A stretch of DNA of 64,000 bases from an uncultured bacterium (GCA_942493055.1 OW818680.1:4184529-4248528), one strand, 5' to 3'; shown: positions 16,401 to 55,100, counted from the first letter of the stretch. Notes: generated by a model not told the origin, from the sequence alone. Translations and numbers: made by a program.

Positions 16401-16691
16401 CAGACGTTCAGTATCAGCCTTCAAGAGCTGCGGGTCCATGCGCGCGCTGTAACGCTCGATCATCTGGCGTGTCCAGGTGATCTCTTCCGTGGCGCGTGTC
16501 AATGGAGCTACGTTTTCCATGCGGAAGAGCCAGTCCGCGCGCAAGAGGTCATCAGCCTCCTTTTCGTTCAGCGTCCGCGTCACAGGCTCTTTCGGTCCGT
16601 TGTCCTGATAGGGGAACTCAGTTGTCTGCGCAAAGCAGAAACATCCGCTAGCGCACAGGATCAGCGCCATCAATGGTCCGTTCATCTTCAT
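13491..16691 (-). CDS. Large secreted protein: coiled-coil N-terminus, TolB/PD40-like beta-propeller repeats, PSCyt1-type cytochrome c motifs (2 CxxCH), C-terminal discoidin-like domain
   Basis: The start was chosen at MKMNGPLMALIL (nt 16691), which has a good RBS (aagggggaaatacc); the longer ORF runs to 16763. PD40-like repeats (DGKIVFLTNRGNSY, DGRILYTRWEY). Heme motifs CTGCH and YERDIQPILDTYCGKCHQGNGKGKEKLDL, the latter following the PSCyt1 pattern V.PIL...C..CH. It is paralogous to 30734-34033 and 61094-end. Confidence 0.8.
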   Translation of the reverse strand: MKMNGPLMALILCASGCFCFAQTTEFPYQDNGPKEPVTRTLNEKEADDLLRADWLFRMENVAPLTRATEEITWTRQMIERYSARMDPQLLKADTERLNNLEKELAALSTTATTNQLTDLYLKIRTLKRQIMFKDPVINFSKLLFIDVPERYPHESMHRVYPQAQLNCGRLLMLDGLNPGGKLTRVAPETGSGWFWRPEVSFDAKNILFCFRPKGERVFHLYEINVDGTGLRQLTSGSYDDMDPIYLPDGKIVFLTNRGNSYARCTVGHPSTLVARCDADGKNIYILSGGNEPEYTPTLLQDGRILYTRWEYTDKELMRIQSLWTVNPDGTGTSVYWGNQSYWPDMLMEAHPIPGDHRVMFAGHGHHLVYNASIGIVDRTKGLNYPDGLTKVTWDTPWAEVGNGPAERQETPLYHVEGKFGGYKSPYPLSKELFLVSARQRYRTVWGENAHPASTPFCIYLMDIYGNRELIYSGTYNLLYPMPVIPRQKPPIIPDQIQWAGAQKDKAPVKSGTFYSADIFQGAAANLRQKGKFLRVLTIDHITFTLGKKLQDVDHPGHPAHMHSGPVMSVTHNDGVKRVLGTVPIEADGSVFFEAPPCVTLHFQVLDENHRALHTMRSFTNLMPGENRGCTGCHEAGSAGSVVAKGDALQKPPAKLKPYPMGASYSLGYERDIQPILDTYCGKCHQGNGKGKEKLDLTLRRSVDGGTFPEPYLTLTLGKKRQIGAFPGVCEGGIADTILAEAHPWRPEDYRTLPAMTKLSANSRLIAIASSGKHHEVKVDENSLFKLILWVDTLCPYRGEQEVRTMDDPDPEDPLFSQSNYPPRDPETVQDVYAQSPYRPRTRTAPLINRAYRQDEFPTVESRLPRDENGNIIAPVIFSNEVKKVINKLFRAPVAATAQSTYSKRGSSARNTLNGSGCSPAGEVTTNSTVSTAMWSDGNDVWLNYDATNTWITFDLGEVVTVRGLHYWGYNHATTERHRNIQSAQIYAGTRLPPNGAEYAEMGKLWGTLVDALTFPQPTGTEDYKGSSLFFSKPVKTRYLQIYVTSKYPGRDNYIGLDEVRFFCEPQ

Positions 16692-16924
16692 GGTATTTCC
16701 CCCTTCATCGAGACAGTGATCATCCATTAAACTGGCAACTTCCCGTAACATATTGAAGACCATTTAACCACACATGTGAAAGAAGATGCAATGCCGATTT
16801 TATTCAGTGTTGAAGATTGGTATTTTCGCACGCGCTTCAAGCAGATTGCTTGGGCATTGGATCCACTGGGATAATTGAATTTAAAACTGTCCATAGGTGA
16901 TAAGCTAAGAAGGAAATACTTTTT

Positions 16925-30733: not shown

Positions 30734-33700
30734 ATGAGCGTGAGAAAAGCAAGAAGAAATATGTTGGGCGTCTTAATCGGGATTGTGCTTTCATTGAGAT
30801 GCGCTTCAGCATGTGCGGATATCCAGCTCTCTCCCTGGCAGGCGATCGGCCCCTTTAAGAATGCCCAGTTTGGGAGCCTTGTGCCCAGTTCGAAAGAGGT
30901 CTATGCGCCTGAAGCGGACGTGCTGGCAAAAGGGGCGGCGCTGGCGGACCTCTCGAAAAGCTACACCGGCGTCAATGTGGATGCAGAGGGGAAGCCCTTT
31001 CCGATGTACGATGCCTTCACCGTTGCGAAATGGGTGCAGCATCCGGAGTGGGCAGACGGGTATCGCAACCTGTTGCCGCGCGGTCCTGCGCCGTCACGCC
31101 ATGAGACAACCTATCTTTACCGCACGATCACTGCATCCGTAGCGACAAACGTAACGCTGCGCGTCTATGCGGAGGATGCCATACAGGCATGGATCAATGG
31201 CGCACCCAACGGACGTGCGATGCGCGTCTACAGTCCCGAGCATCGGCCGACGGCTCTGGTGGCATCCGTGCCCTTGCAGAAGGGGGCGAATCGTTTGCTC
31301 ATCAAAATCACCTCCCTGTTTGCTAAGCATGGCTTTGCCTTTGCCATCGATGGCGTCACAGTTTCCAGCACGCTCGCGCCAGAGGGCTGGCAGGATGTGT
31401 GCAGGAACGAGAAACAGCCTTATCTACTGGATGCGCAAGGCGTGCCGAAGTCAGGGGTGTTCAGGATGAAGGCCCTGCCGGAGCCGATGTTCGACCCCGC
31501 GCAGTTGACCCTGGAGGAGGCGCGCAAATCCATCCCGCTCACCGAAGGGGGCGCTGCGTATGAGCGCTCCATCCGGGCAGTCAATCCGCTAGACCGGCAG
31601 ACGATTCTCGCGCATTGGCAGGGACAGCTCAAGCGGACGGGTCCTATTCTCTTCATGACCTATCCAACCTATTCAATCAATGCCATCGCCCCCCATTCAT
31701 CTCAAGGGGCGTGCCCGGCCTCCATCTGTCTCTTTGATCCGGCCGACCCGAAGGAGTCCCCGAAAGTGATCTTTGCTGAAGAGGAACTCAAGCTCTTCGA
31801 CATGAATCTCTCCTACGACGGCAAGACGATCTTCTTTTCCGCCAAACGAAAAGAGGACGGCCCCTTTTGGCAGATCTATGAGATCGGCACGGACGGGAAG
31901 AATCTGAAGAAAATCATCGGGGGTCAGTGCCAGAACATCAGTCCTGCCCTCCTGCCGGACGGACGGCTCATCTTCATCTCTGACCGCGCCACAACGTATG
32001 TGCAGTGCCAGGCCCAGACCTCGCCCCTTCTCTATTCATGTGCGCGCGACGGTTCAGACATCCGGAAGCTCTCAGCCAATATCGACAGCGACCATACGCC
32101 CCAAGTCATGAACGACGGCAAGATCCTCTTCACGCGCTGGGACTATGGCATTGATAAGAATGTGGACAACCGCCAGGCGCTCTGGACCATGAATCCGGAC
32201 GGGACCGCCATGAAGCTCTTCTTTGGCAACACCATTGAAGATCCGAGCGGTTTCTGGGCTGCGCGGCCTGTGCCCGGACGGCCTGAAGTGCTTTGCGTGC
32301 TGGGTCCGCACCACAACAACCATACGGGCATGGCTGGGCTTGTCTGGAATCTGAAAGGACCAGAAGCGCCGCGCGGCGAGGGCTTCCGCTTCCTGACCCT
32401 CCAGCGTCCCTACGTGGGCGATACAGGACTCCCCTGGCTCTGGCAGGATCTCTATCCCGTCAATGAGAAGCTCTTTCTCGCGAGCTACGGAGGCGACGGC
32501 GGACTCAAAAACCGCCTCTACCTGCTGGATGACCGCGGCAACCGGTTCTGCTTCTATGAGTCTGCGACCAACCTGGGCTGTTTCAATCCCATGCCCCTTG
32601 CGCCCCGTCCTGTACCGCCAGAGGTTGCGCAGGGCTGCACGCCGGTCCCCTTTGTGTTTGAGGACCCTGAACAGCTGAACCAGGCGCCCCGCACCAATGA
32701 CGTCGCTACCTTGATGGTATATGATGTCTATCTGGGCGTCGAACCGCATATCAAGCGCGGCGAAGTCAAATGGATTCAGGTGATGGAGCAGGTGTTGAAG
32801 TCACGGCGCATGGATGGCGGCGAAGCGTGGGGCCACACGCCCATCATCGGACGCGGCACTGTCCATGTGCGCCGCGAGATCGGAAGGGTCCCGGTGAACG
32901 CGGACGGTTCCGCCCATTTCACGGTGCCTGCCCTGCGCAACATCTCCATGAACCTGCTCAACGCGGAAGGCCAGGTCATCATGCGCATGGGCTCTGACAT
33001 GCACACCATGCCCGGCGAGAAGCAGAACTGCATCGGCTGCCACGAGAATCGCAAAGGGGGCGTGCCGCCCTCTGTGACCAAGCAGCCGTTGGCGAGCAGC
33101 CAGCCGCCGGTCGCGCCCCAACAGGCCAACTGGGGGACTCAGGGCGTCATCGACTATCAGCGCGTCGTGCAGCCTGTCTGGAACCGCTATTGCGTCAGCT
33201 GCCACAGCGGGCCGAGGCCCGTAGCGCACCTCGATTTAAGCGGCGACCGTACGCGCTTCTTCTGCGTCTCCTACGACAACCTTGTGGAGCGCGCCCTGGT
33301 CGAATGGCATCAGCCTTTCGCCAACGACTACGACGACAACTTCCCGAAGACCGTCGGAGCCGTTGTCAGCAAGATCCAGACGAAAGTGCTCGACTCCAAA
33401 CATTGCGGGAAGACCATTCCTCCGGACATGCGCTACCGGGTCTGGTGCTGGATCGATGCCAACGTGCCCTATTACGGGACGTACGACTACACCAAGGTGA
33501 AAGACGAGAAGGGGCGCGAGATCGTCCGCGGCGCTGGCGCACGCGATGCGTGGCAGGCAGACGGCATCTGGTCGCAAGCGAACTGGTCCAAGCACTATCC
33601 CAGCACGCCGAACCTCATTTACGACGGCATCAAGCCTGTCTTTGACAGACGCTGCATGAGCTGCCATGAGACGCCGGTGTACAACGGCGGCACCTGGGGC

Positions 33701-34033
33701 TTTGGCGGCGGCTCCATGGACGCCCCCTTCCCGGTCAGCAGCAAGCTCTGGCAGGATCGCGGACTCTGTGCGCACATGGCCATACCGCGTTACGGCTCGA
33801 GCCTCATCTACGGACCGGAACTGCGCATCAACCTCACGAATCCTCAAAACAGCTCCATGCTGCAGGCCCCGCTCTCAAAGGAGGCAGGCGGCTGGGGCGT
33901 GTGCAAAAAACCCGATGGCAAGCCGCTCTTTGAGTCCACGGCTGATCCGGACTACCAGACCATGTTGAAAGCCATCAAGGCCGCCTCCGACCGCCTCCGC
34001 GCCGCGCCCCGTAAAGACATGGCGGGGGAGTAG
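30734..34033 (+). CDS. Large secreted protein: N-terminal beta-sandwich (PA14/lectin-like), TolB/PD40 beta-propeller repeats, three PSCyt1-type CxxCH heme motifs
   Basis: Signal peptide present. PD40-like repeats (DGKTIFFSAKRKEDGPFWQIYEIGTDGKN, PDGRLIFISDR, DGKILFTRWDYG). Heme motifs CIGCH, YQRVVQPVWNRYCVSCHSGPRPVAHLDLSG and CMSCHETP. It is paralogous to 13491-16691 and 61094-end. Confidence 0.8.
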   Translation: MSVRKARRNMLGVLIGIVLSLRCASACADIQLSPWQAIGPFKNAQFGSLVPSSKEVYAPEADVLAKGAALADLSKSYTGVNVDAEGKPFPMYDAFTVAKWVQHPEWADGYRNLLPRGPAPSRHETTYLYRTITASVATNVTLRVYAEDAIQAWINGAPNGRAMRVYSPEHRPTALVASVPLQKGANRLLIKITSLFAKHGFAFAIDGVTVSSTLAPEGWQDVCRNEKQPYLLDAQGVPKSGVFRMKALPEPMFDPAQLTLEEARKSIPLTEGGAAYERSIRAVNPLDRQTILAHWQGQLKRTGPILFMTYPTYSINAIAPHSSQGACPASICLFDPADPKESPKVIFAEEELKLFDMNLSYDGKTIFFSAKRKEDGPFWQIYEIGTDGKNLKKIIGGQCQNISPALLPDGRLIFISDRATTYVQCQAQTSPLLYSCARDGSDIRKLSANIDSDHTPQVMNDGKILFTRWDYGIDKNVDNRQALWTMNPDGTAMKLFFGNTIEDPSGFWAARPVPGRPEVLCVLGPHHNNHTGMAGLVWNLKGPEAPRGEGFRFLTLQRPYVGDTGLPWLWQDLYPVNEKLFLASYGGDGGLKNRLYLLDDRGNRFCFYESATNLGCFNPMPLAPRPVPPEVAQGCTPVPFVFEDPEQLNQAPRTNDVATLMVYDVYLGVEPHIKRGEVKWIQVMEQVLKSRRMDGGEAWGHTPIIGRGTVHVRREIGRVPVNADGSAHFTVPALRNISMNLLNAEGQVIMRMGSDMHTMPGEKQNCIGCHENRKGGVPPSVTKQPLASSQPPVAPQQANWGTQGVIDYQRVVQPVWNRYCVSCHSGPRPVAHLDLSGDRTRFFCVSYDNLVERALVEWHQPFANDYDDNFPKTVGAVVSKIQTKVLDSKHCGKTIPPDMRYRVWCWIDANVPYYGTYDYTKVKDEKGREIVRGAGARDAWQADGIWSQANWSKHYPSTPNLIYDGIKPVFDRRCMSCHETPVYNGGTWGFGGGSMDAPFPVSSKLWQDRGLCAHMAIPRYGSSLIYGPELRINLTNPQNSSMLQAPLSKEAGGWGVCKKPDGKPLFESTADPDYQTMLKAIKAASDRLRAAPRKDMAGE

Positions 34034-34235: not shown

Positions 34236-34287
34236 AGCTTTGCTGGCGGGGGTGCGCTTGTCATTCCGTGAAGTCATCTTGCTCTAT

Positions 34288-34328
34288 ACTCAACGCATTG
34301 AGTAAAATTACTCAATGCGTTGAGTAAT
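34288..34328. promoter_or_regulatory. Perfect 41-bp palindrome (operator-like) upstream of the DUF4143 ATPase gene
   Basis: tactcaacgcattgagtaa-aat-tactcaatgcgttgagtaa. Each half-site is itself near-palindromic. It lies 64 bp upstream of the ATG at 34392 in an AT-rich promoter-like region. Confidence 0.6.
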
Positions 34329-34391: not shown

Positions 34392-35579
34392 ATGGCTTAT
34401 AAAAGAAAGATCGTTGAGGAAGTCAAGAAAGGGCTTGAAAAGGCCCCTGGACTGATTCATGTCGTTGTGGGCCCGCGTCAGGTGGGTAAAACTACGGCGA
34501 TGCGGGACCTTTGCGAATCAGGTCTGATGCCCCATTACTGGGTTGCAGCAGACATGGCTCTTCCTGTCGGTGCTGAGTGGCTGGAGAGCCACTGGCAGAT
34601 GGCCGAAGCCGAAGCCCGTCAGAGGCCAGGTCCTTTTCTGCTGGTCGTGGATGAAGTTCAAAAAGTGAGAGGCTGGAGCGAGACCGTCAAACGGCTTTGG
34701 GACCGTTCGCGGGCTGAAAAGAGTCTCCTGCGTGTGGTGTTGCTGGGGTCATCCGCTTTACTGGTCCAAGCCGGGTTGACGGAGAGTCTCCATGGCCGCT
34801 TTTTCCTCCACCGGTGCATGCATTGGAGTTTCTCTGAAATGCAGGAGTCCTTTGGCTGGGATTTGAACAAGTGGCTCTACTTTGGTGGTTATCCAGGGGC
34901 TGCTGTTTTTTCAGATGATGAGCGGCAATGGCGGCAATATGTGGCGGATGCCATGGTGGAGACGGTTTTGGCGCGGGATGTCTTTCAACTCGCGACGATC
35001 AGTAAGCCCATTCTCATGCGGCACCTCTTCAGTCTGGCGGCTCGCTTCCCGGCCCAGATTCTTTCCTACAACAAGATGCTGGGGCAGCTCCTGGATGCGG
35101 GGAACACGACGACGCTGGCGCATTACCTTAAATTGCTGGAGGCCGCCTTTCTTGTTTCCGGATTGGAACTCTACTCGGCAGGGCATCTGCGGCGTCGCGG
35201 GAGCAGTCCAAAGCTTATCTTCTGGAATGATGCCTTGATACATGCGCTCTCCGGTTACACCTATTTACAGATGCAGACGGACACGGCGTGGTATGGGCGT
35301 GTCCTGGAAAATGCGGTTGGCGCGCATTTGCTGAATCATTTGCCGACGCCCGAGTGGTCTGTCACCTATTGGCGGGATGGAATAAAGGAGATGGATTTTG
35401 TGGTCACCCATGGACATCAAACGTGGGGCATCGAAGTGAAGAGCGGAATACCGCGAAACATGTCCGGTCTTGTCGCGTTCCGTAAAGCCTATCCAGACGC
35501 CAGGGTACTTGTCATTGGCGCTGAAGGCATTGACCCGGAGCGGTTTTTCTCTTGCTCGCCGGAACTGCTTCTCTGCTAG
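34392..35579 (+). CDS. AAA+ ATPase of the DUF4143 family (AAA_14 + DUF4143; COG1373-like)
   Basis: Walker A (VVGPRQVGKTT), Walker B (LLVVDEVQ), and a C-terminal DUF4143-type region (GIEVKSG...). 395 aa. Confidence 0.85.
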   Translation: MAYKRKIVEEVKKGLEKAPGLIHVVVGPRQVGKTTAMRDLCESGLMPHYWVAADMALPVGAEWLESHWQMAEAEARQRPGPFLLVVDEVQKVRGWSETVKRLWDRSRAEKSLLRVVLLGSSALLVQAGLTESLHGRFFLHRCMHWSFSEMQESFGWDLNKWLYFGGYPGAAVFSDDERQWRQYVADAMVETVLARDVFQLATISKPILMRHLFSLAARFPAQILSYNKMLGQLLDAGNTTTLAHYLKLLEAAFLVSGLELYSAGHLRRRGSSPKLIFWNDALIHALSGYTYLQMQTDTAWYGRVLENAVGAHLLNHLPTPEWSVTYWRDGIKEMDFVVTHGHQTWGIEVKSGIPRNMSGLVAFRKAYPDARVLVIGAEGIDPERFFSCSPELLLC

Positions 35580-35594
35580 AACGGTAAAAAATCA

Positions 35595-35963
35595 TTATTC
35601 CGCTTTCGTTTTTCGTTCAGCGCGTACCGCTTTGATCTCAGCGTCCACATCGCTCATGGTCAGACGGTTGTCTCGCTTCACATCACGCCGGATCTCCGAA
35701 ACAGCCAATTGTGCCTGTTCTAGAGCGCTTCCAAAATGTTTTACGAAGAGCGCCTCGGCCTTTTGGATGCCTTCCTCGGTCATGTGGACAGACTTAGCTT
35801 TGCCTTTGGGATCCATGATAAGCCCCTTCTCATGCAGACGGTCCATTGTGTCCCAGTCGAATGATTTCCAGGCCCGGCCGCCAAATCCTTTGACTCGCTC
35901 GCAGATCACGAGATAGAGAAGCGCTAATGTCATATCATCTACTTTGTCTTTATCGAAGTCCAT
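35595..35963 (-). CDS. DUF6429-like small protein
   Basis: A 122-aa ORF: MDFDKDKVDDMTLALLYLVICE...FDWDTMDRLHEKGLIMDPKGKAKSVHMTEEG matches the conserved DUF6429 N-terminal block as I recall it. The C-terminal half is a charged coiled coil. Confidence 0.6.
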   Translation of the reverse strand: MDFDKDKVDDMTLALLYLVICERVKGFGGRAWKSFDWDTMDRLHEKGLIMDPKGKAKSVHMTEEGIQKAEALFVKHFGSALEQAQLAVSEIRRDVKRDNRLTMSDVDAEIKAVRAERKTKAE

Positions 35964-36026
35964 GGTTAATCTCCTATTGTTGAATTATAGCCCACGGAAA
36001 ACACGGAACAGCACGGAAAGAAAACG

Positions 36027-36311
36027 TTATCTGAGTTGAAAAAACCATTTTATGGTTTGACTAAAGAGAGCCCCTGTTAATATAAGGGAAAAGACTCCCA
36101 AAACTTTAATGGCAGGAGTCCCCCGCTTGGTGATGCGTATGCCCCCGATGAATATGGGCACGAAGAGAAGTAATCCGACTAAATTCAGAACCCCGACAAG
36201 GGCACTTGCAGGATGCGCTGTCATCGCGCCGCATGCTGAGGCTATGAAGAGGAGCCCGGTCATACCAAGCAGTTCTTTCAAGTCTCTCTTTTCAGCAGCT
36301 ATAAAATCCAT
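36027..36311 (-). CDS. Hypothetical small membrane protein (3 transmembrane segments)
   Basis: A 94-aa hydrophobic ORF in the low-GC island. Confidence 0.45.
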   Translation of the reverse strand: MDFIAAEKRDLKELLGMTGLLFIASACGAMTAHPASALVGVLNLVGLLLFVPIFIGGIRITKRGTPAIKVLGVFSLILTGALFSQTIKWFFQLR

Positions 36312-36446
36312 TTCCGCTTCCCTTTCTTTCGCAACCGATTGAGGGATGACAGGGGGACAGACAAGGTGTTGCTCTGATCGGTTGCAAATTCAGCACACGA
36401 CAGGTGCTAAATCTTCCACGGCAAAGATTCAGCACCCATTGGGTGC

Positions 36447-38288
36447 TCAAACTGTGTCCTCTTCTGCTTGAGATTCTGTCACATCAGATAAAGTTAATCG
36501 AAGCGAATCTAAACGCAACTCACGATCCGCGAGCTTTTCTTGTCGTGCAAGCCACCTCTGGAACTTTTCTGGATCGCTTTCAATGTCGAGGCTCTCTCGA
36601 TACTGAGTTGCCTCAGCAGTCTCCGTCCAATGGGCAACTGTGAGTGGCTCGGACTGGCTAAGCCGATCCACTTCCTCGCGAACATTTTTGAGAGAGACAC
36701 GAAAGAATTCTTTGCGTGAGTTGACTTTGTTAATTTGCATAGCTAGAAAGCGTTTTTGGAGTTTGTGTTCAAGCACTGGAGCGTTATCACTCTTGATCCA
36801 AGCGTGAACATCGAAGTCAAAAGGTACGCTAGCGTCGCCGAGTTCGTCAATACGTTCTTGTGGGTTGGGACGACGCGTTTGGCCGATCTTGTAGATACCT
36901 TCTCCTAATGTGCCAACGTTTGAGATAATGTAAACAGTTCCAGTTTTGGTTTGCTGGGCGATCGTGAGTTTCTTCTCTGTGGCAGCAGCTAGGTCTAGTC
37001 GAAGAGTGTCGTTAGATTGCTGCATTTCGGCAATTTTGCGTTCCCACATTTCCTTGTCTTGTGCTGTCGCTTGCTCGAATGCAAGCCGTGCAGCAGCGAG
37101 TTCACGTTCTTTCTCTTCGAGTGCCTTCTTTGTGAGTTCCTCTTCCTTTGCCGCTTGACGAATCTGCTGTTCGTACTCCCTGCGCGCTTTCTCTTCATCG
37201 CGCATGCGTGCCTTGATCTCGCGCTGCTCTTCAAGTTGTCTGCGGACGAGTTCCTGAACGACGACAGCCCATTTCAATTCTTCAAGTCTAGCATTTAGAT
37301 AGGTATCATGAATACGGGCCTCTCGAAATGCTTTGCCGTTAAAATTGACGAGGCTGAAGGAGTCGCGAATCTCTTGCTCCAAAATCCCATAGTTGTCGCG
37401 TTTCACTCTTGTGAGTATGGCATCGACTCGGCCATTGAACGCATCAATAACAAAGCGGATGGCGGTCTCTCTACGGTTCGCCTCAACGTACTCACAGGTT
37501 GCAGCTTCGCCTTGCTCTACCATTCGGCGGGATTGCGCCCTGGCTGACTTGAGGGATTCGCCAGCTGAGGTGTAGCCAAACTCAACGGCCAAATTGTCGA
37601 GTAGACTATGCGTAGGAATAATGTATCTGTCGCCGTAACCTTCGATGATGTTACGCATGGCCTCAGTAGCACGTTCAAGAAGCTGCTTGTCGCGCAGTGA
37701 ATCATAAGCCTCTCCAGCAATCTCTCTTGCCCGTTTTTCTGCATCTTCGACGATTAAGCCAGCATCGCGCGTAGCTTGGTTGAGGCGTGCATCTGCCTGT
37801 TCATAGATCGTCTTCGCTGTCTCAGTTGCCTTAACACGTTCGGTCTCAGCGGCTGATCGAGTCTGCTCAAGGAGAGTCCTTGCTTGTGCACGTAATGCAG
37901 TTGCTTCCGATATGGCGGTATCGAGTGCCTGTCTAACCTCGACTTCAGCATTGCGAAGGGAAGCGAAATGGCTTAAGGCGTTTAGCTCTGCCATAGCCTT
38001 GGTAAGTTGGGTCTGTGAGTCTTCAACAATTCGGCGCGCTTCAGTTTCGTAATGTTGGCGGATTCGTTCTGCTTCGACGCGCATATCAGCGATTTGCTGG
38101 GCAATTAGTTTTTGCGCCTCGTCGAGGGACTGCGAGGTTTCTGACCTTATACGAACGGTTTCTTGCTTAGCCACGGCTACTTCTTTTTGGCGCTGGTCAG
38201 CAAGGTTTTTGAGGGTCTTTGTTTTTAAAAAGAAGACAACAAGGGCTATCAAAAGACCTATGCAGGCAATGGCGAGGAATATAGTCAT
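36447..38288 (-). CDS. DUF4041 + T5orf172 (GIY-YIG-like/MUG113) domain protein with an N-terminal transmembrane anchor and a long coiled coil
   Basis: A 613-aa ORF with N-terminal MTIFLAIACIGLLIALVVFFL and an extended Ala/Glu/Arg/Gln-rich coiled coil. The C-terminal GTVYIISNVGTLGEGIYKIGQTRR...RIDELGDASVPFDFDVHAWI...LEHKLQKRF...NSRKEFFRV matches the T5orf172/GIY-YIG core (YIGxT, R, E, N). Confidence 0.8.
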   Translation of the reverse strand: MTIFLAIACIGLLIALVVFFLKTKTLKNLADQRQKEVAVAKQETVRIRSETSQSLDEAQKLIAQQIADMRVEAERIRQHYETEARRIVEDSQTQLTKAMAELNALSHFASLRNAEVEVRQALDTAISEATALRAQARTLLEQTRSAAETERVKATETAKTIYEQADARLNQATRDAGLIVEDAEKRAREIAGEAYDSLRDKQLLERATEAMRNIIEGYGDRYIIPTHSLLDNLAVEFGYTSAGESLKSARAQSRRMVEQGEAATCEYVEANRRETAIRFVIDAFNGRVDAILTRVKRDNYGILEQEIRDSFSLVNFNGKAFREARIHDTYLNARLEELKWAVVVQELVRRQLEEQREIKARMRDEEKARREYEQQIRQAAKEEELTKKALEEKERELAAARLAFEQATAQDKEMWERKIAEMQQSNDTLRLDLAAATEKKLTIAQQTKTGTVYIISNVGTLGEGIYKIGQTRRPNPQERIDELGDASVPFDFDVHAWIKSDNAPVLEHKLQKRFLAMQINKVNSRKEFFRVSLKNVREEVDRLSQSEPLTVAHWTETAEATQYRESLDIESDPEKFQRWLARQEKLADRELRLDSLRLTLSDVTESQAEEDTV

Positions 38289-38315
38289 AAAACAATCTCC
38301 AGGGGATTACAAGGG

Positions 38316-39389
38316 TTAGGTAAGTTCTGGGTTCAATGCTGCACATTGAGTTGTAAGCTCTGCTCTAAGCCGTTGTGCCGTTTCGAGGGTTGCGTTGAAG
38401 TCTCTGTTGACGAATGCATCCTGTGGGGTGAGATCCGCGACCGTCAAAGGCGTGATGAGCTCGAAATCGCCAGTTTTTCGGGATGTTCTGAGGTCTCCAC
38501 GATGTGGCATACTCATAATTGAGTCTGACGGGTCGATCATATTGAAGTTAATAGAGTTGATGATATTTCGAGAAATTACGACAGAAAGGAACGGCCGCTC
38601 GACAGTCTGCCCAGTAGTTGTGTCCAAAGTCTCCGCCGAGGAGGAGATCAGCAGAGTCTCAATTGGAAGGAGTGCGAAAAGTTCACGGGCCGCTCGCAAA
38701 ACGCAACTACATATATAGTCCTGATAGATTTCTGCGAAACGGGATTTCGGGATGGCCTTGACGGAAACTTTTCCTGATGCAGTAAGAAGCTTCTGCTCCG
38801 CTGGAATTGCTTGTCGTCCATGAGTACTGAGCATGACCTCGACAAGGCGCGGATTGTGACTGGTGAAGTGAAAAGAGGAACCAATACCGTCGAGTTCAGA
38901 GAATGGGTTGATTTTTTCTACTGCCTCAATATAGGCATCTTGATCGCTGTTGAGAATTCGTCGGGCAAGACTCGCCATGTTTGACCATTCTGCGTAATCT
39001 GCGGCATAGGATTGAAGGGATTCCTCATAATCGCGTTCATCCTGCTGTTTTGCGAGTTCAATGGCAACATCTTTATTTTTGGCCGTTGGCAGGAGGGCGA
39101 GGCTCTGACGGGCTTTGAGTTCGTTATACTTCTGGCGACAAGGATGGATTGGAGGCAGGGCTACAGCGATGGCAAGCCAGTCTATCGCATCGGTTTGTTC
39201 CTTATGGAGAGAAAGTAGTACGTCTAGGGAGTTTTCATAAGCTTCGACCTCTAATCGTGACTGTTCGAGAGTTGTAAGCTTTTCAGCCTCCTTTATTTGG
39301 CGATCTAATTCACGTTGCCGGTTCTTGGCTTCGCGCGTCTGTACCCGGCCAGTGGCTCTTCTTGTGCGTATAGTAGTGTTTTGTGTCAT
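38316..39389 (-). CDS. Hypothetical protein (uncharacterised; partner of the DUF4041/T5orf172 gene)
   Basis: A 357-aa ORF ending 27 bp upstream of the DUF4041 gene start on the same strand. The N-terminus is a basic coiled coil (RRATGRVQTREAKNRQRELDRQIKEAEK). No recognisable catalytic motifs. Low GC. Confidence 0.6.
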   Translation of the reverse strand: MTQNTTIRTRRATGRVQTREAKNRQRELDRQIKEAEKLTTLEQSRLEVEAYENSLDVLLSLHKEQTDAIDWLAIAVALPPIHPCRQKYNELKARQSLALLPTAKNKDVAIELAKQQDERDYEESLQSYAADYAEWSNMASLARRILNSDQDAYIEAVEKINPFSELDGIGSSFHFTSHNPRLVEVMLSTHGRQAIPAEQKLLTASGKVSVKAIPKSRFAEIYQDYICSCVLRAARELFALLPIETLLISSSAETLDTTTGQTVERPFLSVVISRNIINSINFNMIDPSDSIMSMPHRGDLRTSRKTGDFELITPLTVADLTPQDAFVNRDFNATLETAQRLRAELTTQCAALNPELT

Positions 39390-39710
39390 ACCAATATCTC
39401 AAGCCTACCAAGATTACCGAAAGTGTCGGTTTGAAGTCCAACTAAACAAATATGTTGTCAGTGTTGCGGTTTTCCCCGCACAATTCAAGTCAAAAAAAAT
39501 AATAGTTTCTGGCCAGAGTCAAAATCAAATTTTGCTTAATTGCCCTGATGGAGCACAAAATGAGGTAAGAGTACATCAACAAACCACTGCACCGTAAGTA
39601 GAATGGGCTTGTTTGGGGTGTTAGACTTTTGATAAGGTAACCCCATATTGAAAATGTGAGGTGATAAGTAAACGATAATCACTGAATGACTCCAGTCCCA
39701 CAGGTGTAAA

Positions 39711-40529
39711 ATGGTAAACAAGAAGAAAGTTTATGAAATTATTGGGCTAAACGGGAAAAACAAGTGGAGTAGGTTCTTTAACCTTGCCATGATGTTTTTG
39801 ATTCTAATTAACATTATCATCCTTTTTATCTCAACGCTTGACGTTCAAGAGAAAGGCCAACATTGGTTAAACACGGCAGAAACAATTATTGGTATAATTT
39901 TTACAGTGGAGTATGTTTTGCGTTTCTGGACGGCGAATTATCTATATCCTGAACGATCATGGTTAGAAGCGCGTTTCTGTTATATTAGTTCGCCGATGGC
40001 AGTGATTGATTTGCTTTCCATATTGCCTATTTATTTGCCTTTCCTGCTACCTGTAAACTTCGCAAGTATTCGTGCGCTTAGGATCATTAGGATCTTTCGG
40101 ATTATTAAATTGAATCGATATACGGATGCTTTTGTGTCAGTAGCAAATGTTTTTAAACTTAAAGCCAAGCAATTATTAGTCTCCTTCCTGCTCGTCGGCT
40201 TGTTAATGTTGATTTCTTCTTTGTTAATATACGGTGCTGAACATGAGATGCAGCCGGATAAGTTTGCAAATGCTTTTTCCGGGCTTTGGTGGGCAGTGGC
40301 CACGTTGACTACAGTAGGATATGGCGATATTTATCCTGTTACGGCTCTTGGAAAAATACTATCATCAATCATTGCAATGTTAGGTATTGGGATGGTTGCT
40401 GTGCCGACAGGCATTATTAGTGCTGGATTTATGGAGGCAATGGCCAATAAGGAAAAAGAAAAAAAGCAGGATGTCTTCAAGTATTGTCCTCATTGTGGGG
40501 AAAAACTGTTTGCGCATGTGGAGAAGTAG
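39711..40529 (+). CDS. Voltage-gated-type potassium channel (6TM Ion_trans/Kv-like)
   Basis: The K+ selectivity filter [12 protein letters not shown] is present. The S4 segment has Arg at every third position ([17 protein letters not shown]). S1-S6 can be assigned by hydropathy. There is a C-terminal CPHCGEK zinc-ribbon-like tail. Confidence 0.85.
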
Positions 40530-40530
40530 T

Positions 40531-41104
40531 TATGAAAAAACAAGTGAACAAGACACGAGTGGCAGAGCTGACGCGTCAGCTCCTGATTGAGCTGGGCGAA
40601 GATCCTGACCGCGAAGGGTTGAAGGGGACGCCGAAGCGCGTGGCGGAGTCGCTCGCCTTTCTGACCGGCGGCTATCGGCAGACGACGAAGCGGGTCGTCA
40701 ACAATGCGGTCTTCCAGTCGCATACGAACCACATGATCATCGTTCGCGACATCGAAATCTACAGCTTGTGCGAACACCACATGCTGCCCTTCTACGGCCG
40801 CTGCCATGTGGGCTACATCGCCAAGGACAAGGTGATCGGCGTGAGCAAGATCGCACGCATCGTGGATTGTTTCGCGCGCCGGCTCCAGATTCAGGAGCGC
40901 CTGACGGAGCAGATCGCTGACTCGATCATGGAGGAGGTGGATGCCGAGGGCGTCGGCGTGGTCATGGAGTGCCGCCACCTCTGCATGATGATGCGCGGCG
41001 TGGAGAAGCAGAACTCGGTCATGACCACCTCGGCCGTGCTCGGCTCCTTCCGGACCGAAGGCGCCACGCGCCAGGAGTTCTTGTCATTGATTAGGGCGCA
41101 TTAA
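40531..41104 (+). CDS. folE: GTP cyclohydrolase I
   Basis: An RBS (ggagaag) precedes the ATG at 40531. The FolE active-site blocks [11 protein letters not shown] and [13 protein letters not shown] are present. It starts 2 bp after the channel gene stop. Confidence 0.9.
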
Positions 41105-41340
41105 GAAGTTCTAAAGTTCTAAAATGCTAAAGTTCCTGACGGGGATGCGCGTTTAGGGATCGTGAGGCTGGTGGCTGGCAGGTGATCGGCCACGACCCGC
41201 CTTCGAAAATCTACGGCTTGGCAGGCAGCGCGTGGCCCTCCCGTGCGTTTGATTTCCCCTTGAATATTGGATATTCCGTGTTGGATATTGGATATTCCGT
41301 CAACTTTAGAACTCTCGAACTTTAGAACTTCTCGCTCGAT
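41105..41340. repeat. Short inverted AACTTTAGAAC-type repeats flanking a GC-rich segment, with tandem TGGATATTCCG units
   Basis: gttctaaagttctaaaatgctaaagttcc (41105-41133) pairs with aactttagaactctcgaactttagaac (41303-41330). ttggatattccg occurs 3 times at 41263-41300. Confidence 0.6.
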
Positions 41341-51842: not shown

Positions 51843-52075
51843 AGTCTCGCCCTCCAACTTGCGGAGCTGTATTAAAGTGGAGGGCGAAGCTGTGCTGAGC
51901 CGCAAAAATACGGCCCGAACGTGCTTATCTTGGAGCCATTCCTATCTGTCCACCAGTTGCCCGTCTACCATGTTGCCGATATGAAAAGTTAGTGGCATTG
52001 GGCGAGGACGCCTATACGCCCAGGAGTTGCAATGAATCAAAACGCACCCGTTGTATAGGGTCTCGGTATTTTCCT
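51843..52075. repeat. Upstream region of the giant helicase carrying copies of two dispersed motifs (gtctcgccctccaac...ggagggcgaagctgtgc; gacgcctatacgcccagg)
   Basis: 51843-51915 is related to the tandem units at 60722-60870 (ctggagggtgaggctgtgccgaaccgtgcaaa). 52007-52025 matches the CCTATACGCC family at 18420-18660. gacagggggacagacaag (51793-51810) also occurs at 36349-36366. Confidence 0.65.
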
Positions 52076-52167
52076 GTAGCGCGGGATTTTTCAGTTGCGC
52101 TTTGTTTTCATCGATAGTAAAATCATCCCAATCTGCAACAGTTCAAATGATAAGGAAGGATTTAGGC

Positions 52168-55100
52168 ATGTCTGCTGATTTACAGCCAATGAATGGGACA
52201 GTCAAAATAGACCTGGACTATTGCAACAAGATTAATCTGTCCGCCTATCAGAAGCGAATTCTGATTGTCCGCTCTCTGCGTCTCACCAATGCGACTGAGC
52301 AGGTTTTGGAGGGCGTGGTCTGTGTCATCTCCGCAGCACCGGCGATGATCTGTGCAAAGAAAGTCTTTATCGAACAGCTCCCGGCGGGGGCGGAATATGT
52401 TGTCCAGCAGGTGGATGTCGAGGCGGATTATGCCTTTATCACGCAGCTCTCGGATAAAGTGGTCGGGCAGGTGACGGTCTCTGTCTATCAAGGTGACGTA
52501 CTCCTGGCGGAAAGCGCCTACCCCATGGAGGCTTATGCAGCAGACCAGTGGCTCGGCGCCTCTCTTTATCCGGAGTTGCTGTGCTCCTTCGTAACGCCGA
52601 ACCTGGAGGTCATCTCGGGCTTAATGGGGGAGGTCGCCGTTGAGCTGGAGCGGTTGACAGCGTCGTCTGCGATTAACGGGTATCAGAGCCAGGACAAGAA
52701 GAGAGCCTACGCGATATGCACAGCGGCGTATCGAGCCGTCCTAAACTGGCAAATCAACTATGCCAATCCGCCTGCCTCCTTTGAAGGGCAGCGCATCCGT
52801 TTTGCGGATGCGATTTATAAATTCAGGCTGGGAACCTGCCTGGATACGACACTGCTTTTAGCCTCCGTAGTGGAGCAATGCGGGCTCCATCCTGTCATCA
52901 TGCTCACGAAAGGGCACGCCTATTTAGGGTGCCACCTGAAAGACTTCTATTTTTCAGAACCCGTGGTGGCTGACTTACAAACCATTCGTAAGCTGGTGGG
53001 ACTGGATGACTTCGTGGTCTTTGAGACGACCTGCGTGACGAAGGGCACCTCTTTTGAGAGCGCGGAAGCAGAGGCGAGGAGGGCTCACCTGAATGACGAT
53101 GACGCGTTTGTCTTTGCTCTTGATGTGATGTGCGCCCGCAAATGTGGAATATTGCCCCTGCCATTGAAACGCAGCACAGACGGGATTGAGTTTAATCCGC
53201 CGGAGACGCAGAAGCGAAATACAGGCAAGGAGACCATCAGGGAACTGGAAACCGCGATTGAAGTGGAGGAACAGTCTGTCGCTGGCAATCGCATCATGCG
53301 CTGGCGGCAGAAGCTGCTTGACCTCTCCTTGCGTAACAGGCTGCTGAATGCGAAGGAGAACAACAAACAGTTCGTGCGGCTGCTGTGCCATGATATTTCG
53401 GCGCTTGAGGATAATCTCGCCTCGCGCCAGTCTTTTCAGATCTTGCCGTTTGGAAACCTCGTTCATTCGGATGAGCAGGAACTGCGGAACATGAGCCTGT
53501 TGAGCAAGCTGCAGATCACAGACGATATAAAAGCGCGAATTGAAAGTGAAATGAAGCAAGGCCGGCTCTTATCCCCCTTGTCGGAAGAGGTTCTCAAGGC
53601 CCGGCTCAAGGAGTTGTATCGTCAGGGCATAGCAGATATCGAAGAGGGCGGTGTGAATACCCTTTTTCTGGCGGCAGGTTTTTTGTCGCATCCCAATCCG
53701 AATCAACCGACCTCCTGCATCGCACCCATCATCCTCATTCCGATCCGACTTGAGCGGCCCTCCGGCAATCAGGCGGTGACCCTTTCACGGATGGACGATG
53801 AAGCGGTGATCAATGTGACGCTTCTTGAGTTGCTGCGCAAGGAGTTTAAGGTGAGCATCCCCGGCGTGGATCCCCTGCCGACCGATGACATGGGTGTCGA
53901 TGTGAAGAAGGTGATGCAGATCTTCCGGCAGGCCCTGTGCGATGTGAAGGGGTGCGAAGTGCTTGAAGAGATTGCACTCGGGCGATTTTCCTTCAACAAG
54001 TTCATCATGTGGAATGACCTGACGGCACGCGAGGAAATCCTGAAAAACAATGAAATCGTAAGGCATCTCGTATCCGGCGAAGCCATGTTTGACGATGGCG
54101 TGGAGGTCTTTGACCCGAAAGATGTTGATTCCAATCTGGTGTATTCGGATCTCTTTTGCCCTGTCAGCGCAGACTCCTCGCAAGTCGCGGCCGTCATATA
54201 CTCGGGCATGGACAAGAATTTTGTGCTCCATGGTCCGCCCGGGACAGGGAAGTCGCAAACGATCACCAACATCATCGCCCATAACCTCGCCAGGGGTAAG
54301 AAAGTCCTTTTTGTCTCAGAAAAGAAGGCGGCGCTTGACGTGGTCTATCGTCGGCTCAGCCAGATCGGGCTGCAGCCGTTCTGCCTTGAATTGCACTCCA
54401 ACAAGACGGGCAAGGCGGATGTGCTGAAGCAGTTTTCCGAAGTCCTTGAGCTGCCGGAGATGGGTGCGCCCCAGGGATGGGACGCGACAGTCACGGAACT
54501 GGCAAAACTTCGGCAGGCGCTTCATTTATATACGACAGACCTGCATCACGTTTATCCGAACAGGTTGTCGGCATACGACTGCTTTGCCAGGGTCATGAGC
54601 TGCGCGCAGGGAGCGTGGATTGACGGATGGTTTTCGTGTGACCTGCTAACCGACACGACCGAGCAGTATGAAGAGAGAAAAGCATTTGCTGCGGATCTGG
54701 GGCAGGCCTACCGGTATGTGTCCGAAGCGGCTCAGCAGGCCTTTTCGGGGCTTGCCACCTTTGAGTGGAACCCGCAAGTCGAGCGGGAATTCAAGATGCG
54801 TGCAGAAGGGCTCCGGGATTGTGCGAGAGCGCTGGCAAAGGTCTTTCAGCCCCATGCGACCACGCTTGGACTTCCAGCGGAGGAGACGGGGTTAAAGAGG
54901 GTTTATGAGGTCGCTGCTCTTTTTGAGGTGCTGAAAGACTCAGAAGCGATCCCGTCGGATTTCATATCACAGGACTTTGCCTCAAACAGGGTGGAACTGG
55001 AGCGAGCCATTGGCAATGCCCTCCAGTTTGTAAAGGCGAGGGATGAGCTGGCTCCCTACAATCTGGATGCACTGGCCGCTGTGGACTGGGATTCGGTCCT

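Follow-up and report, generated by a model that had tools for sequence, protein, structure and literature searches.

A SNIPE (PD-lambda-1) homologue encoded with a conserved partner protein in a low-GC islet of an uncultured bacterium

Two adjacent genes in an AT-enriched stretch of a bacterial genome raise the question of whether they form a defence module, whether that module is new, and what the smaller of the two proteins might contribute to it. The genes, here called A (357 aa) and B (613 aa), lie in a 64,000-nucleotide stretch of DNA from an uncultured bacterium (GCA_942493055.1 OW818680.1:4184529-4248528), which is referred to below as the window. An original prediction had described them as a horizontally acquired pair of the defence type, in which a membrane-anchored, nuclease-like protein is accompanied by a partner.

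Composition and setting of the gene pair

The sharp fall in GC content that had been placed at about 35.6 kb is real, with values in 500-nt windows of 0.58-0.65 at 29-34 kb and at 40.5-43 kb, and of 0.47-0.52 across 35.5-39.5 kb and 0.37-0.41 across 39.25-40.5 kb. Its onset lies earlier than proposed, at about 34.0 kb (0.49), so that the low-GC islet extends over about 34.0-40.5 kb and the gene of a DUF4143 ATPase falls inside it. The window as a whole is a mosaic, its 2-kb bins ranging from 0.45 to 0.63 GC, and the proposed backbone of about 60 % is therefore only roughly correct. Within the islet the lowest GC content was found in a K+ channel gene, while the A/B pair stood at about 0.48-0.50.

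Each of the neighbours that had been named was confirmed, namely a DUF4143/AAA_14 ATPase (34392..35579, plus strand; PADLOC candidate PDC-S01, E 3.4e-150), a DUF6429 gene (35595-35963, minus strand; Pfam E 1e-30), an ORF whose translation gives a small membrane protein of 94 aa with three hydrophobic segments (36027-36311, minus strand), and a Kv-like channel. The flanking genes in the window encode an FGGY kinase, a cytochrome-like protein, folE and a GH2 hydrolase. No phage genes or integrase were found among the neighbours, no tRNA nearby and no flanking direct repeats, and a prophage or integrative-element setting was rejected; the pair is thus not part of an intact prophage, and a tblastn search with A returned no relative in 50,697 phage genomes (INPHARED) or in IMG/VR. 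The view of the region as a horizontally acquired islet of the defence type is supported. A scan for promoters and terminators gave counts not above those of shuffled sequence.

Both A (38316..39389) and B (36447..38288) are on the minus strand, co-directional and in the same reading frame, with A upstream and a spacer of 27 nt (38289..38315, minus strand) between them, as had been predicted, and the arrangement looks operonic. In comparisons with two close relatives, dN/dS was 0.13-0.18 for A and 0.11 for B; the two are real genes under purifying selection. The DUF6429 gene, the 94-aa ORF and the DUF4143 gene were considered as further members of the cassette and rejected, since they are not kept beside A/B beyond the closest relative: the ATPase occurs near the pair elsewhere only in the close relative L001, and in tblastn searches DUF6429 appeared only as a 25-residue piece in that same locus, while the 94-aa ORF was without any match. 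These genes, named earlier as flanking cargo, are not part of the conserved unit.

The SNIPE homologue

B matched the PADLOC profile PD-Lambda-1 (PDLC03977) with an E value of 6.8e-85, its residues 134-580 aligning to profile positions 42-482 of 496, and phrog_1847 with an E value of 5e-95. Judged from these matches, from Pfam and from its AF2 model, B is a SNIPE (PD-lambda-1) homologue. PD-lambda-1 of Escherichia coli was reported by Vassallo et al. 2022 (PMC9519451) and was renamed SNIPE when its mechanism was characterised by Saxton et al. 2026 in Nature (PMC13190303); the Pfam family PF13250 (DUF4041) now bears the same name. The proposal of an unnamed and uncharacterised effector does not hold, since the mechanism of the family that B matches has already been published (PMC13190303).

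The domain organisation that had been read from the 613-aa protein, a TM anchor followed by a long helical stalk, DUF4041 and a T5orf172/GIY-YIG domain, was borne out by Pfam, hydropathy and AF2. A single N-terminal TM helix is predicted at residues 3-21 (38226..38282, minus strand), which form the highest 19-residue Kyte-Doolittle window of the protein (mean 3.2) and lie inside an AF2 helix spanning residues 2-106; such an anchor is present in about 66 % of published SNIPE homologues. The core of the DUF4041/SNIPE domain occupies residues 279-334 (37287..37454, minus strand; Pfam E 1.3e-12, above the gathering score), within a block of the clade, at about residues 160-360, that is conserved at a per-20-residue identity of 0.8-0.88 over 80 homologues. 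The nuclease domain lies at residues 450-543 (36660..36941, minus strand; Pfam T5orf172/MUG113, E 8e-14 and 4e-15), and positions at least 95 % identical in the 80 homologues are Y453, K467-I468-G469, R472, R473, R479, E482, H495, N520, N523 and E527. The predicted GIY-YIG catalytic residues of B appear intact, E527 being the putative counterpart of E414 in E. coli SNIPE. The AF2 model (pLDDT 75.8) is elongated and helical, with helices at residues 2-106, 109-191 and 328-446 and a C-terminal alpha/beta domain.

SNIPE is a nuclease of the inner membrane that protects against siphoviruses by cutting the DNA of the phage while it is being injected, and in E. coli it is effective as a single gene (PMC13190303). 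Its own variable N-terminal region serves there as an adapter to the phage entry site by binding ManYZ, self and non-self are told apart by location in the cell, and SNIPE without its TM segment is toxic and damages host DNA, the membrane-bound form being described as auto-inhibited (PMC13190303). A partner gene is neither mentioned in that study nor was one found in a literature search. An abortive-infection module without any name, whose membrane nuclease is triggered by a sensor partner and kills the host, would be consistent with a conserved cassette whose partner is uncharacterised, and the damage done to host DNA by the ΔTM protein makes self-killing chemically possible; but the family of B has both a name and a published characterisation, and E. 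coli cells with SNIPE live through infection and go on growing, so that the defence is direct (PMC13190303). We therefore regard such a module as highly improbable, and the abortive-infection framing as unsuited to a defence that acts at DNA injection and is a single gene in E. coli.

The partner family and its linkage to SNIPE

A had been described as free of recognisable motifs, and accordingly it had no match in Pfam, NCBIfam or PADLOC, nor did any of 84 members of its family scanned singly against Pfam at E<=10. The family, which has no description, comprises 2133 clusters at 50 % identity (E<=1e-3), and no relative of A was found among solved structures (PDB). An exact-sequence look-up of A returned no contig. 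The 357-aa protein has no TM segment, HTH or known antitoxin domain and is predicted to be cytoplasmic. Its AF2 model (pLDDT 88.5) consists of a conserved core at residues 1-320 (38430..39389, minus strand), with a long N-terminal helix, a helical hairpin and an alpha/beta domain, and of a C-terminal region at residues 325-357 (38319..38417, minus strand) in which a helix is modelled at 331-352. Residues kept in at least 90 % of 124 sequences include H62, W71, D117, G170, P196, Q223, D224, C227, R232, E236, S269, D286 and S288. Past residue 320 the alignment has a column occupancy of 0.43-0.61 and an identity of 0.10-0.18; matches extend to residue 345-357 where a SNIPE gene follows (with the exceptions L034, L047 and L057) and elsewhere end at about 296-341, and the C-terminal helix is a candidate SNIPE docking element.

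A SNIPE gene was located directly after A at 49 of 80 genome loci and at 71 of the 72 metagenome loci that had at least 300 nt downstream of A. The A-B gap in other loci was about -4 to 40 nt, and the arrangement reached down to about 41 % identity in A and about 47 % in B. Look-ups that started from B gave the same picture, with a homologue of A of 361-363 aa found in three of three cases, either 2 to 10 nt ahead of the SNIPE gene or sharing 4 nt with it. Flanking genes vary between unrelated A-B loci, and no other gene family recurred in more than 9 of the 80. In an NJ tree, one split parted all 85 SNIPEs that follow A from all 80 A-less ones, so the operon is confined to one SNIPE clade, in which the two genes are inherited together. 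On viral contigs, A was within 4 kb of none of 80 SNIPE homologues (39-49 % identity), and among plasmid records with SNIPE 1 of 196 also carried A. A Fibrella plasmid holds the two genes in reverse order, SNIPE then A, with a gap of 42 nt; in the tree its SNIPE groups with the A-less ones, and the pairing is an independent second association. The original proposal of a two-gene module, examined by the synteny of 357-aa homologues with DUF4041/T5orf172 genes, strongly passed this examination within the clade: A and B form a conserved module, whose effector family is known and whose new element is the conserved, undescribed partner A.

Sequences that could have been taken for natural fusions were set aside. 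P0375 and P0250, which join the N-terminal part of A to the C-terminal part of SNIPE, were read as deletion derivatives or chimeras and not as clean Rosetta-stone evidence, and loci L163 and L167 likewise. The distance matrices of A and B correlate, with a Mantel r of 0.65 that 0 of 999 permutations reached, and we counted this in favour of a unit of the two genes; that the value is well under 1 counts against the explanation favoured below.

The core of A also occurs in Shango, a system made up of the TerB protein SngA, the BrxC/D-type ATPase SngB and the DEAD helicase SngC. In about 9 loci it replaces the TerB_N domain of SngA, and in L039, L040, L056, L061, L063, L067, L069 and L076 it is fused N-terminally to TerB and TerB_C and followed by SngB and SngC, which are bona fide members of their families (E 9e-162 and E 4e-220, respectively). 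A word-indexed protein search with the C-terminus of SngA gave 4 matches. Homology of A to TerB_N was considered and rejected: hhalign of A2 against two canonical SngA proteins gave a probability of 0.3 % and an E value of 0.2, a weak test with a TerB_N profile of 2 sequences, and TerB_N was matched in Pfam at E<=10 by 0 of the 84 family members. The same core is thus common to SNIPE-linked, Shango-fused and stand-alone proteins and, on sequence grounds, is a reusable module.

Stand-alone A-like genes were found at about 20 of the 80 genome loci and on Bacillus and Nostoc plasmids, with no recurrent partner among 101 neighbouring proteins; they also occur in archaea, Chloroflexota and cyanobacteria. 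Since they lack recurrent neighbours, the core may have a self-sufficient function unrelated to SNIPE, and A could be an enzyme or a separate single-gene defence that only accompanies SNIPE on a mobile cassette of two genes. The invariant polar residues H62, D117, K200, Q223, D224, R232, E236, D286, S288 and H296 suggest a catalytic or ligand-binding site, which favours such independence. However, across more than 120 loci the gaps stay between -4 and about 40 nt although all the flanks differ, A carries a SNIPE-specific C-terminal helix, an independent pair in reverse order exists in Fibrella, and a covalent fusion joins the core to another defence protein. These observations point to functional coupling and not to hitch-hiking, and we consider an independent function of A unlikely.

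A further candidate member of the unit is the gene of a Kv-type voltage-gated K+ channel (39711..40529, plus strand; Pfam Ion_trans E 1e-35, with a TTVGYGD filter and S4 Arg repeats), which is divergent from A, with 321 nt between them. At 10 of the 80 genome loci the gene immediately upstream of A encodes a channel, and in no other position did these loci contain one. The channels belong to two subfamilies, 22-30 % identical to each other, and occur beside A of all three kinds, SNIPE-type, Shango-type and stand-alone. In L006, L039 and L069 the channel gene points the same way as A, with gaps of 17-75 nt, and the arrangement of the window is kept in L001 and L002. This distribution would suit a three-part unit in which the channel signals or boosts the depolarisation and K+ leak that come with phage DNA injection, A senses the channel and SNIPE does the cutting. 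Among metagenome A-SNIPE loci with usable upstream sequence, however, a channel was present at 1 of 41, which makes it dispensable for most cassettes; the divergent orientation and different GC content of the channel gene in the window (0.37-0.40 versus 0.48) suggest a separate acquisition, and the tie between injection depolarisation and the channel is itself conjectural. A three-part unit is accordingly improbable, and the channel is a possible recurrent third partner outside the core cassette.

Proposed role of the partner and comparison with known systems

The explanation we favour, at a probability of about 0.6, is a two-gene variant of SNIPE in which B is the effector and A a docked adaptor or sensor subunit, this being the most likely role of A. 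B would be anchored in the inner membrane by its single N-terminal helix, with the helical stalk, DUF4041 and the GIY-YIG nuclease projecting into the cytoplasm. On the model of its E. coli homologue, the DUF4041 region of B would bind DNA and the phage tape-measure/entry complex, its nuclease would cut the phage genome during injection, and membrane tethering together with auto-inhibition would spare the chromosome. A would be an accessory subunit in the cytoplasm, translated from the mRNA that also encodes B and most likely docked onto SNIPE by its C-terminal helix (about residues 325-357), in parallel with the covalent fusion of the core to TerB/TerB_C in SngA. In that position A may decide where and when the nuclease fires, for example by detecting something of host or phage origin at the entry site or by responding to a membrane or ion disturbance, a role that in E. 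coli SNIPE is taken by the ManYZ-binding N-terminal region. The fact that E. coli SNIPE works alone (PMC13190303) indicates that SNIPE chemistry does not as a rule depend on A, and the strong conservation of A, with its many invariant polar residues, is more that of an enzyme or of a binder of a conserved host component than that of a fast-evolving phage sensor.

The tight coupling of the genes, with A first, would also be expected if A were an antitoxin-like safety or immunity subunit that keeps membrane SNIPE inactive until infection frees the nuclease. The toxicity of the TM-less protein and the auto-inhibition ascribed to the membrane-bound form (PMC13190303) agree with this, as does the purifying selection on a conserved A, which is expected of a binder of a conserved partner. 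Nevertheless, phages and plasmids commonly carry A-less SNIPEs built in the same way, with no reported toxicity, the core is fused to TerB in Shango, where no nuclease needs inhibiting, and stand-alone A genes exist, and we think it unlikely that A acts as a safety subunit.

The favoured adaptor or sensor role can be taken a step further, to the doubtful idea that the core is a widespread sensor/adaptor domain for two unrelated membrane-surveillance effectors, coupling a membrane or ion signature of phage entry to their activation: the SNIPE nuclease via the docking helix and the Shango TerB-ATPase-helicase via fusion, with K+ channels as additional neighbours. Were this true, it would offer a first handle on how infection is sensed by Shango, by other TerB systems and by this SNIPE clade. 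Should A be a targeting or sensing subunit, the SNIPE model would gain a trans-acting adapter, two membrane-acting defence systems would be mechanistically linked and a large unannotated protein family would be given a context; the recurring K+ channel neighbour further suggests the testable idea that A-containing systems may sense changes in ions or voltage during injection. In the sampled members a whole SNIPE clade, mostly from Verrucomicrobiota and Lentisphaerota, comes with a second conserved protein, and defence-finder tools would label the locus as a single-gene PD-Lambda-1 and overlook it.

Compared with known systems, B resembles SNIPE in its N-terminal TM helix, helical stalk, DUF4041, linker helix and C-terminal GIY-YIG/T5orf172 nuclease, and its elongated AF2 model fits the published description (PMC13190303). 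It differs in that published SNIPE is a single-gene system, whereas every sampled member of the clade of B has a gene for a protein of 350-370 aa in one operon with it; in being about 100 residues longer than the 509-aa homologue of a Salmonella plasmid, a protein distinct from E. coli SNIPE; and in that the hosts of A-B pairs are mostly Verrucomicrobiota and Lentisphaerota and not enterobacteria. With Shango, the locus shares the core of A (residues 1-320), which is the N-terminal domain of SngA in a subset from Verrucomicrobiota and Acidobacteriota, and both Shango and SNIPE are thought to work at or near the membrane early in infection. Canonical SngA, however, has TerB_N, to which A is not detectably related, where the fused loci have the core, and the A of the window has neither TerB nor TerB_C, no SngB or SngC nearby, and SNIPE as its neighbour. 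The phage/prophage family phrog_38135 aligns with residues 114-310 of A at profile positions 232-430 of 441 (E 4.9e-37), but its N-terminal region is unlike that of A. Finally, DUF4236-domain proteins of Bacillus and Geobacillus plasmids have the same core, with 30-37 % identity over residues 12-315, and differ from A in carrying an extra N-terminal DUF4236 and in standing without a SNIPE neighbour or a conserved context.

Genomic setting of the A-B pair

ORF calling placed the 357-aa partner gene A (38316-39389, minus strand) ahead of the 613-aa SNIPE homologue B (36447-38288, minus strand), 27 nt apart and in a common reading frame. Each neighbour named in the original prediction was found: a DUF4143/AAA_14 ATPase (34392-35579, plus strand; Pfam), a DUF6429 gene (35595-35963), a small membrane ORF of 94 aa with three hydrophobic segments (36027-36311) and an Ion_trans channel (39711-40529, plus strand) with a TTVGYGD K+ filter and an Arg-repeat S4. 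Beyond the islet edges lie an FGGY kinase, an HZS_alpha-domain cytochrome-like protein, folE and a GH2 hydrolase. In 500-nt windows, GC content was 0.58-0.65 in both flanks (29-34 and 40.5-43 kb), about 0.49 at 34.0-34.5 kb, 0.47-0.52 over 35.5-39.5 kb and 0.37-0.41 in a minimum zone at 39.25-40.5 kb. The predicted low-GC island was thus seen as a drop in GC, with its onset about 1.5 kb before the proposed start; the whole window is a compositional mosaic (2-kb bins range from 0.45 to 0.63 GC), so that the A/B islet is one among several low-GC patches. Neither a tRNA gene near the islet nor an att-like repeat at it was found, and the region is a small chromosomal islet and not a prophage.

Further features were recorded in the window. 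The DUF4143/AAA_14 ATPase is a nearly full-length match to the PADLOC single-gene candidate PDC-S01 (E 3.4e-150), and a perfect 19-nt palindrome (34287-34326) lies shortly upstream of its gene. At the right edge of the islet, shortly 3' of folE, a 31-nt inverted repeat (41104-41332; arms 87% complementary, 167 nt apart) is composed of tandem AAGTTCTAAAGTTC-like units. Some 12 kb away from the islet, a second gene of defence type (52051-57993, plus strand) encodes a protein of 1980 aa that combines DUF4011 and DUF3320 with an SF1 helicase (AAA_11/AAA_12) and a restriction-endonuclease-like MTES_1575 domain; it matches the PADLOC candidate PDC-S37 at 1256 bits and Hhe at E 7e-163. Two proteins of about 1,100 aa (13491-16763, minus strand; 30734-34033, plus strand) share a hydrazine-synthase-alpha middle domain (HZS_alpha), to which one adds cytochrome-c-like and beta-propeller matches and the other adds an F5/8 type C domain; as paralogues they are unusual amid otherwise housekeeping genes.

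B as a member of the SNIPE family

PD-lambda-1, which originated in the selection by Vassallo et al. (PMC9519451), was renamed SNIPE by Saxton et al. (Nature 2026; PMC13190303), who describe a single protein with a TM helix at its N-terminus, a cytoplasmic DUF4041, which binds DNA as well as, probably, phage tape-measure proteins, and a GIY-YIG nuclease by which phage DNA is cleaved as it is injected. Protection is by direct defence rather than abortive infection, and the variable N-terminal region of E. coli SNIPE is an adapter with ManYZ as its bound partner (PMC13190303).

HMM searches had been proposed for both proteins, and only B was matched beyond noise by Pfam and PADLOC. Its Pfam matches were DUF4041 (residues 279-334) and T5orf172/MUG113 (450-543), the PADLOC PD-Lambda-1 models covered residues 134-580 (E 6.8e-85), and phrog_1847 matched at E 5e-95. 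Residues 3-21 are strongly hydrophobic, and among 80 B homologues the GIY-YIG residues Y453, K467-G469, R472/R473, R479, E482, H495, N520, N523 and E527 are at least 95% conserved. The AF2 model (pLDDT 75.8) is elongated and helical (helices 2-106, 109-191 and 328-446), with a C-terminal alpha/beta domain at 450-554. The hydrophobic N-terminal segment, the conserved nuclease residues and the elongated model agree with the published description of SNIPE, and precomputed Pfam tables name PF13250 'SNIPE', so that the effector belongs to a family already known and characterised. The original prediction that the pair is not a named system was consequently wrong for B, and its abortive-infection framing is at odds with published SNIPE biology. 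From homology, we hold with high confidence that B would work as SNIPE does, as a membrane-tethered nuclease that would cut incoming phage DNA.

Conservation and distribution of the partner A

A gave nothing above noise against Pfam, NCBIfam and PADLOC, and 84 family members, each scanned against Pfam at E<=10, gave coiled-coil noise only. Its single family match, over residues 114-310, was to phrog_38135 (E 4.9e-37), a family of unknown function. A is nonetheless part of a large family: a word-indexed search returned more than 477 matches, and an exhaustive profile search returned 2,133 representatives at 50% identity with a cutoff of E<=1e-3, or 845 with E<=1e-30. With dN/dS of 0.13-0.18 against two close relatives (0.11 for B), A is a real gene under purifying selection. 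In an alignment of 124 members of the family, the core is conserved up to about residue 320, and H62, W71, D117, K200, Q223, D224, R232, E236, S269, D286, S288 and H296 are retained in at least 80-90%. The confident AF2 model (pLDDT 88.5, pTM 0.74) starts with an N-terminal helix of 57 residues; more helices follow, among them 106-146, then an alpha/beta domain (about 170-310) and, at the C-terminal end, the helix 331-352. Hydropathy analysis revealed no hydrophobic segment. Foldseek against the PDB gave no match at E<=1e-3, viral structures gave one uncharacterised siphovirus protein (E 2.7e-4), and a sequence profile against the PDB came back empty, so that A has no informative structural relative, solved or viral.

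To assess synteny, we started from A in one genome per species and took the best 80 matches, a sample skewed toward close relatives, with genes called as longest ORFs. A SNIPE homologue lay directly 3' of A on the same strand in 49 of the 80 genome loci and, in an independent metagenome sample, in 71 of the 72 loci that extended at least 300 nt downstream, supporting the predicted synteny of the two families. In the genome loci identity went down to about 41% for A and 47% for B, and longest-ORF calls gave gaps mostly between -4 and about 40 nt. Starting from B, three homologues on long contigs (57-62% identity) all had a 361-363-aa A homologue upstream, at 2 to 10 nt or with a 4-nt overlap, flanked by unrelated housekeeping genes. 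Clustering of neighbour genes found no family besides A and B in more than nine loci, so that what moves is the two-gene cassette. Over 78 pairs, A-A distances were correlated with B-B distances (Mantel r 0.65, reached by 0 of 999 permutations). Most hosts belong to Verrucomicrobiota and Lentisphaerota/Victivallales, and some are Planctomycetota and Acidobacteriota MAGs; the taxon labels of several MAGs look unreliable.

In four further cases (fusion proteins P0375 and P0250; loci L163, 3418-5078, and L167, 2575-4235) a truncated A runs straight into the C-terminal part of SNIPE, from DUF4041 onward or the nuclease alone; such sequences probably derive from the cassette by deletion or are chimeras of it created in assembly. 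Two loci elsewhere (L001 and L002, in MAGs with unreliable-looking labels, 'uncultured proteobacterium' and 'Akkermansia muciniphila') have the folE-channel-A-SNIPE order of the window at 34.4-41.1 kb, L001 also carrying DUF4143; folE is 90-96% identical to that of the window and A just 69-80%, A being the fastest-evolving gene of the islet in this comparison.

No relative of A was found by tblastn in 50,697 phage genomes, and none was confirmed by scanning IMG/VR. SNIPE homologues are encoded at 372 IMG/VR loci, and in the best 80 of these (39-49% identity to B) no A lay within 4 kb (tblastn E<=1, hmmsearch). A neighbour-joining tree on BLOSUM distances over the conserved region (B residues 160-570) separated all 85 A-then-B SNIPEs from all 80 viral SNIPEs by a single split. 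Among plasmids, 196 records had SNIPE and 10 had A, with one overlap, the Fibrella plasmid CP155472, in which the order is reversed (SNIPE, 42-nt gap, A) and SNIPE falls on the A-less side of the split, suggesting a second, independent pairing (n=1). A may have an independent function and merely be carried along with SNIPE; the reversed order and tree position in Fibrella, although a single case, are evidence of a type that favours functional coupling over such hitch-hiking.

Reuse of the A core and proposed role

The 31 genome loci without SNIPE comprised Shango fusions, other fusions and stand-alone genes. In about nine (L039, L040, L056, L061, L063, L067, L069, L076, and L060, placed here by protein length alone) the A core is the N-terminus of a 560-1034-aa protein whose remainder is TerB plus TerB_C and matches PADLOC SngA from profile position ~274-314 on; 3' of the fusion lie SngB, a BrxC/D-type ATPase (E 9e-162), and SngC, a DEAD helicase (E 4e-220). 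Canonical SngA of Klebsiella and Methylorubrum has TerB_N where these proteins have the A core, and the loci are Shango systems with the A core in the place of TerB_N. A relation of A to TerB_N was not detectable (hhalign probability 0.3%, a weak test). The eight domain-scanned variants come from MAGs of Verrucomicrobiota and Acidobacteriota; in L076 some 300 aa of repeat-rich sequence are inserted within the A helical region, and some variants carry a K+ channel as a fourth co-directional gene.

L055 and L059 are other fusions, L059 with a hydrophobic C-terminal extension. About 20 stand-alone genes (~330 aa), from archaea, Chloroflexota, cyanobacteria and others, had no recurrent neighbours; versions on Bacillus and Geobacillus plasmids add DUF4236. 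One stand-alone A-like gene (L084, Hymenobacter monticola plasmid NZ_CP094537, 79525-90475) follows co-directional genes for a PP2C phosphatase, an InaA-family kinase, a DUF475 membrane protein (a TerC relative) and a hypothetical protein; in view of the TerB fusions, it may be another link of the A domain to Ter-type proteins.

Alignments to the window's A extend to residue 345-357 if SNIPE follows and otherwise end at ~296-341 (exceptions: L034, L047 and L057), and column occupancy and identity collapse past residue 320, so that the C-terminal helix is the SNIPE-specific portion of A. Its position is where the Shango versions run on into TerB.

A Kv-type channel gene lay directly upstream of A in 10 of the 80 genome loci, and at no other position in those loci, an adjacency far above chance for a gene family with about one member per genome. 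Two subfamilies (22-30% identity to each other) are involved. The window, L001, L002 and the stand-alone Rhodanobacteraceae locus L077 have members of one; members of the other occur in the Lentisphaerota/Victivallales SNIPE-type loci L004-L006 and the Shango-type L039, L040, L069 and L076. In L006, L039 and L069 the channel is co-directional with A (gaps 17-75 nt). Channel, A and SNIPE may form one three-part unit; among the 41 metagenome A-SNIPE loci whose upstream sequence was usable, however, only 1 had a channel, which is an occasional third partner rather than a core component. The window's own channel gene is divergent from A and compositionally distinct. Its GC (0.37-0.40) is the lowest anywhere in the window; the channels have a TVGYGD filter and an Arg-repeat S4, and recur upstream of A whatever the effector (SNIPE, Shango or none).

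We propose, with moderate confidence and from gene context, that A is an accessory targeting or sensing subunit for both SNIPE and Shango. As a cytoplasmic protein docking through its C-terminal helix, it would supply B with the function that E. coli SNIPE has built into its own N-terminus, and its core would do the equivalent job for Shango. Alternatively, A may be a safety or inhibitor subunit; this reading, like independent function and the three-part unit, draws on the strong conservation of A, the occurrence of stand-alone genes and the lack of a structural analogue. The conserved partner, its clade restriction, its reuse in Shango and its channel linkage are absent from the SNIPE paper (PMC13190303) and from the searchable literature. 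The effector B itself was already known.
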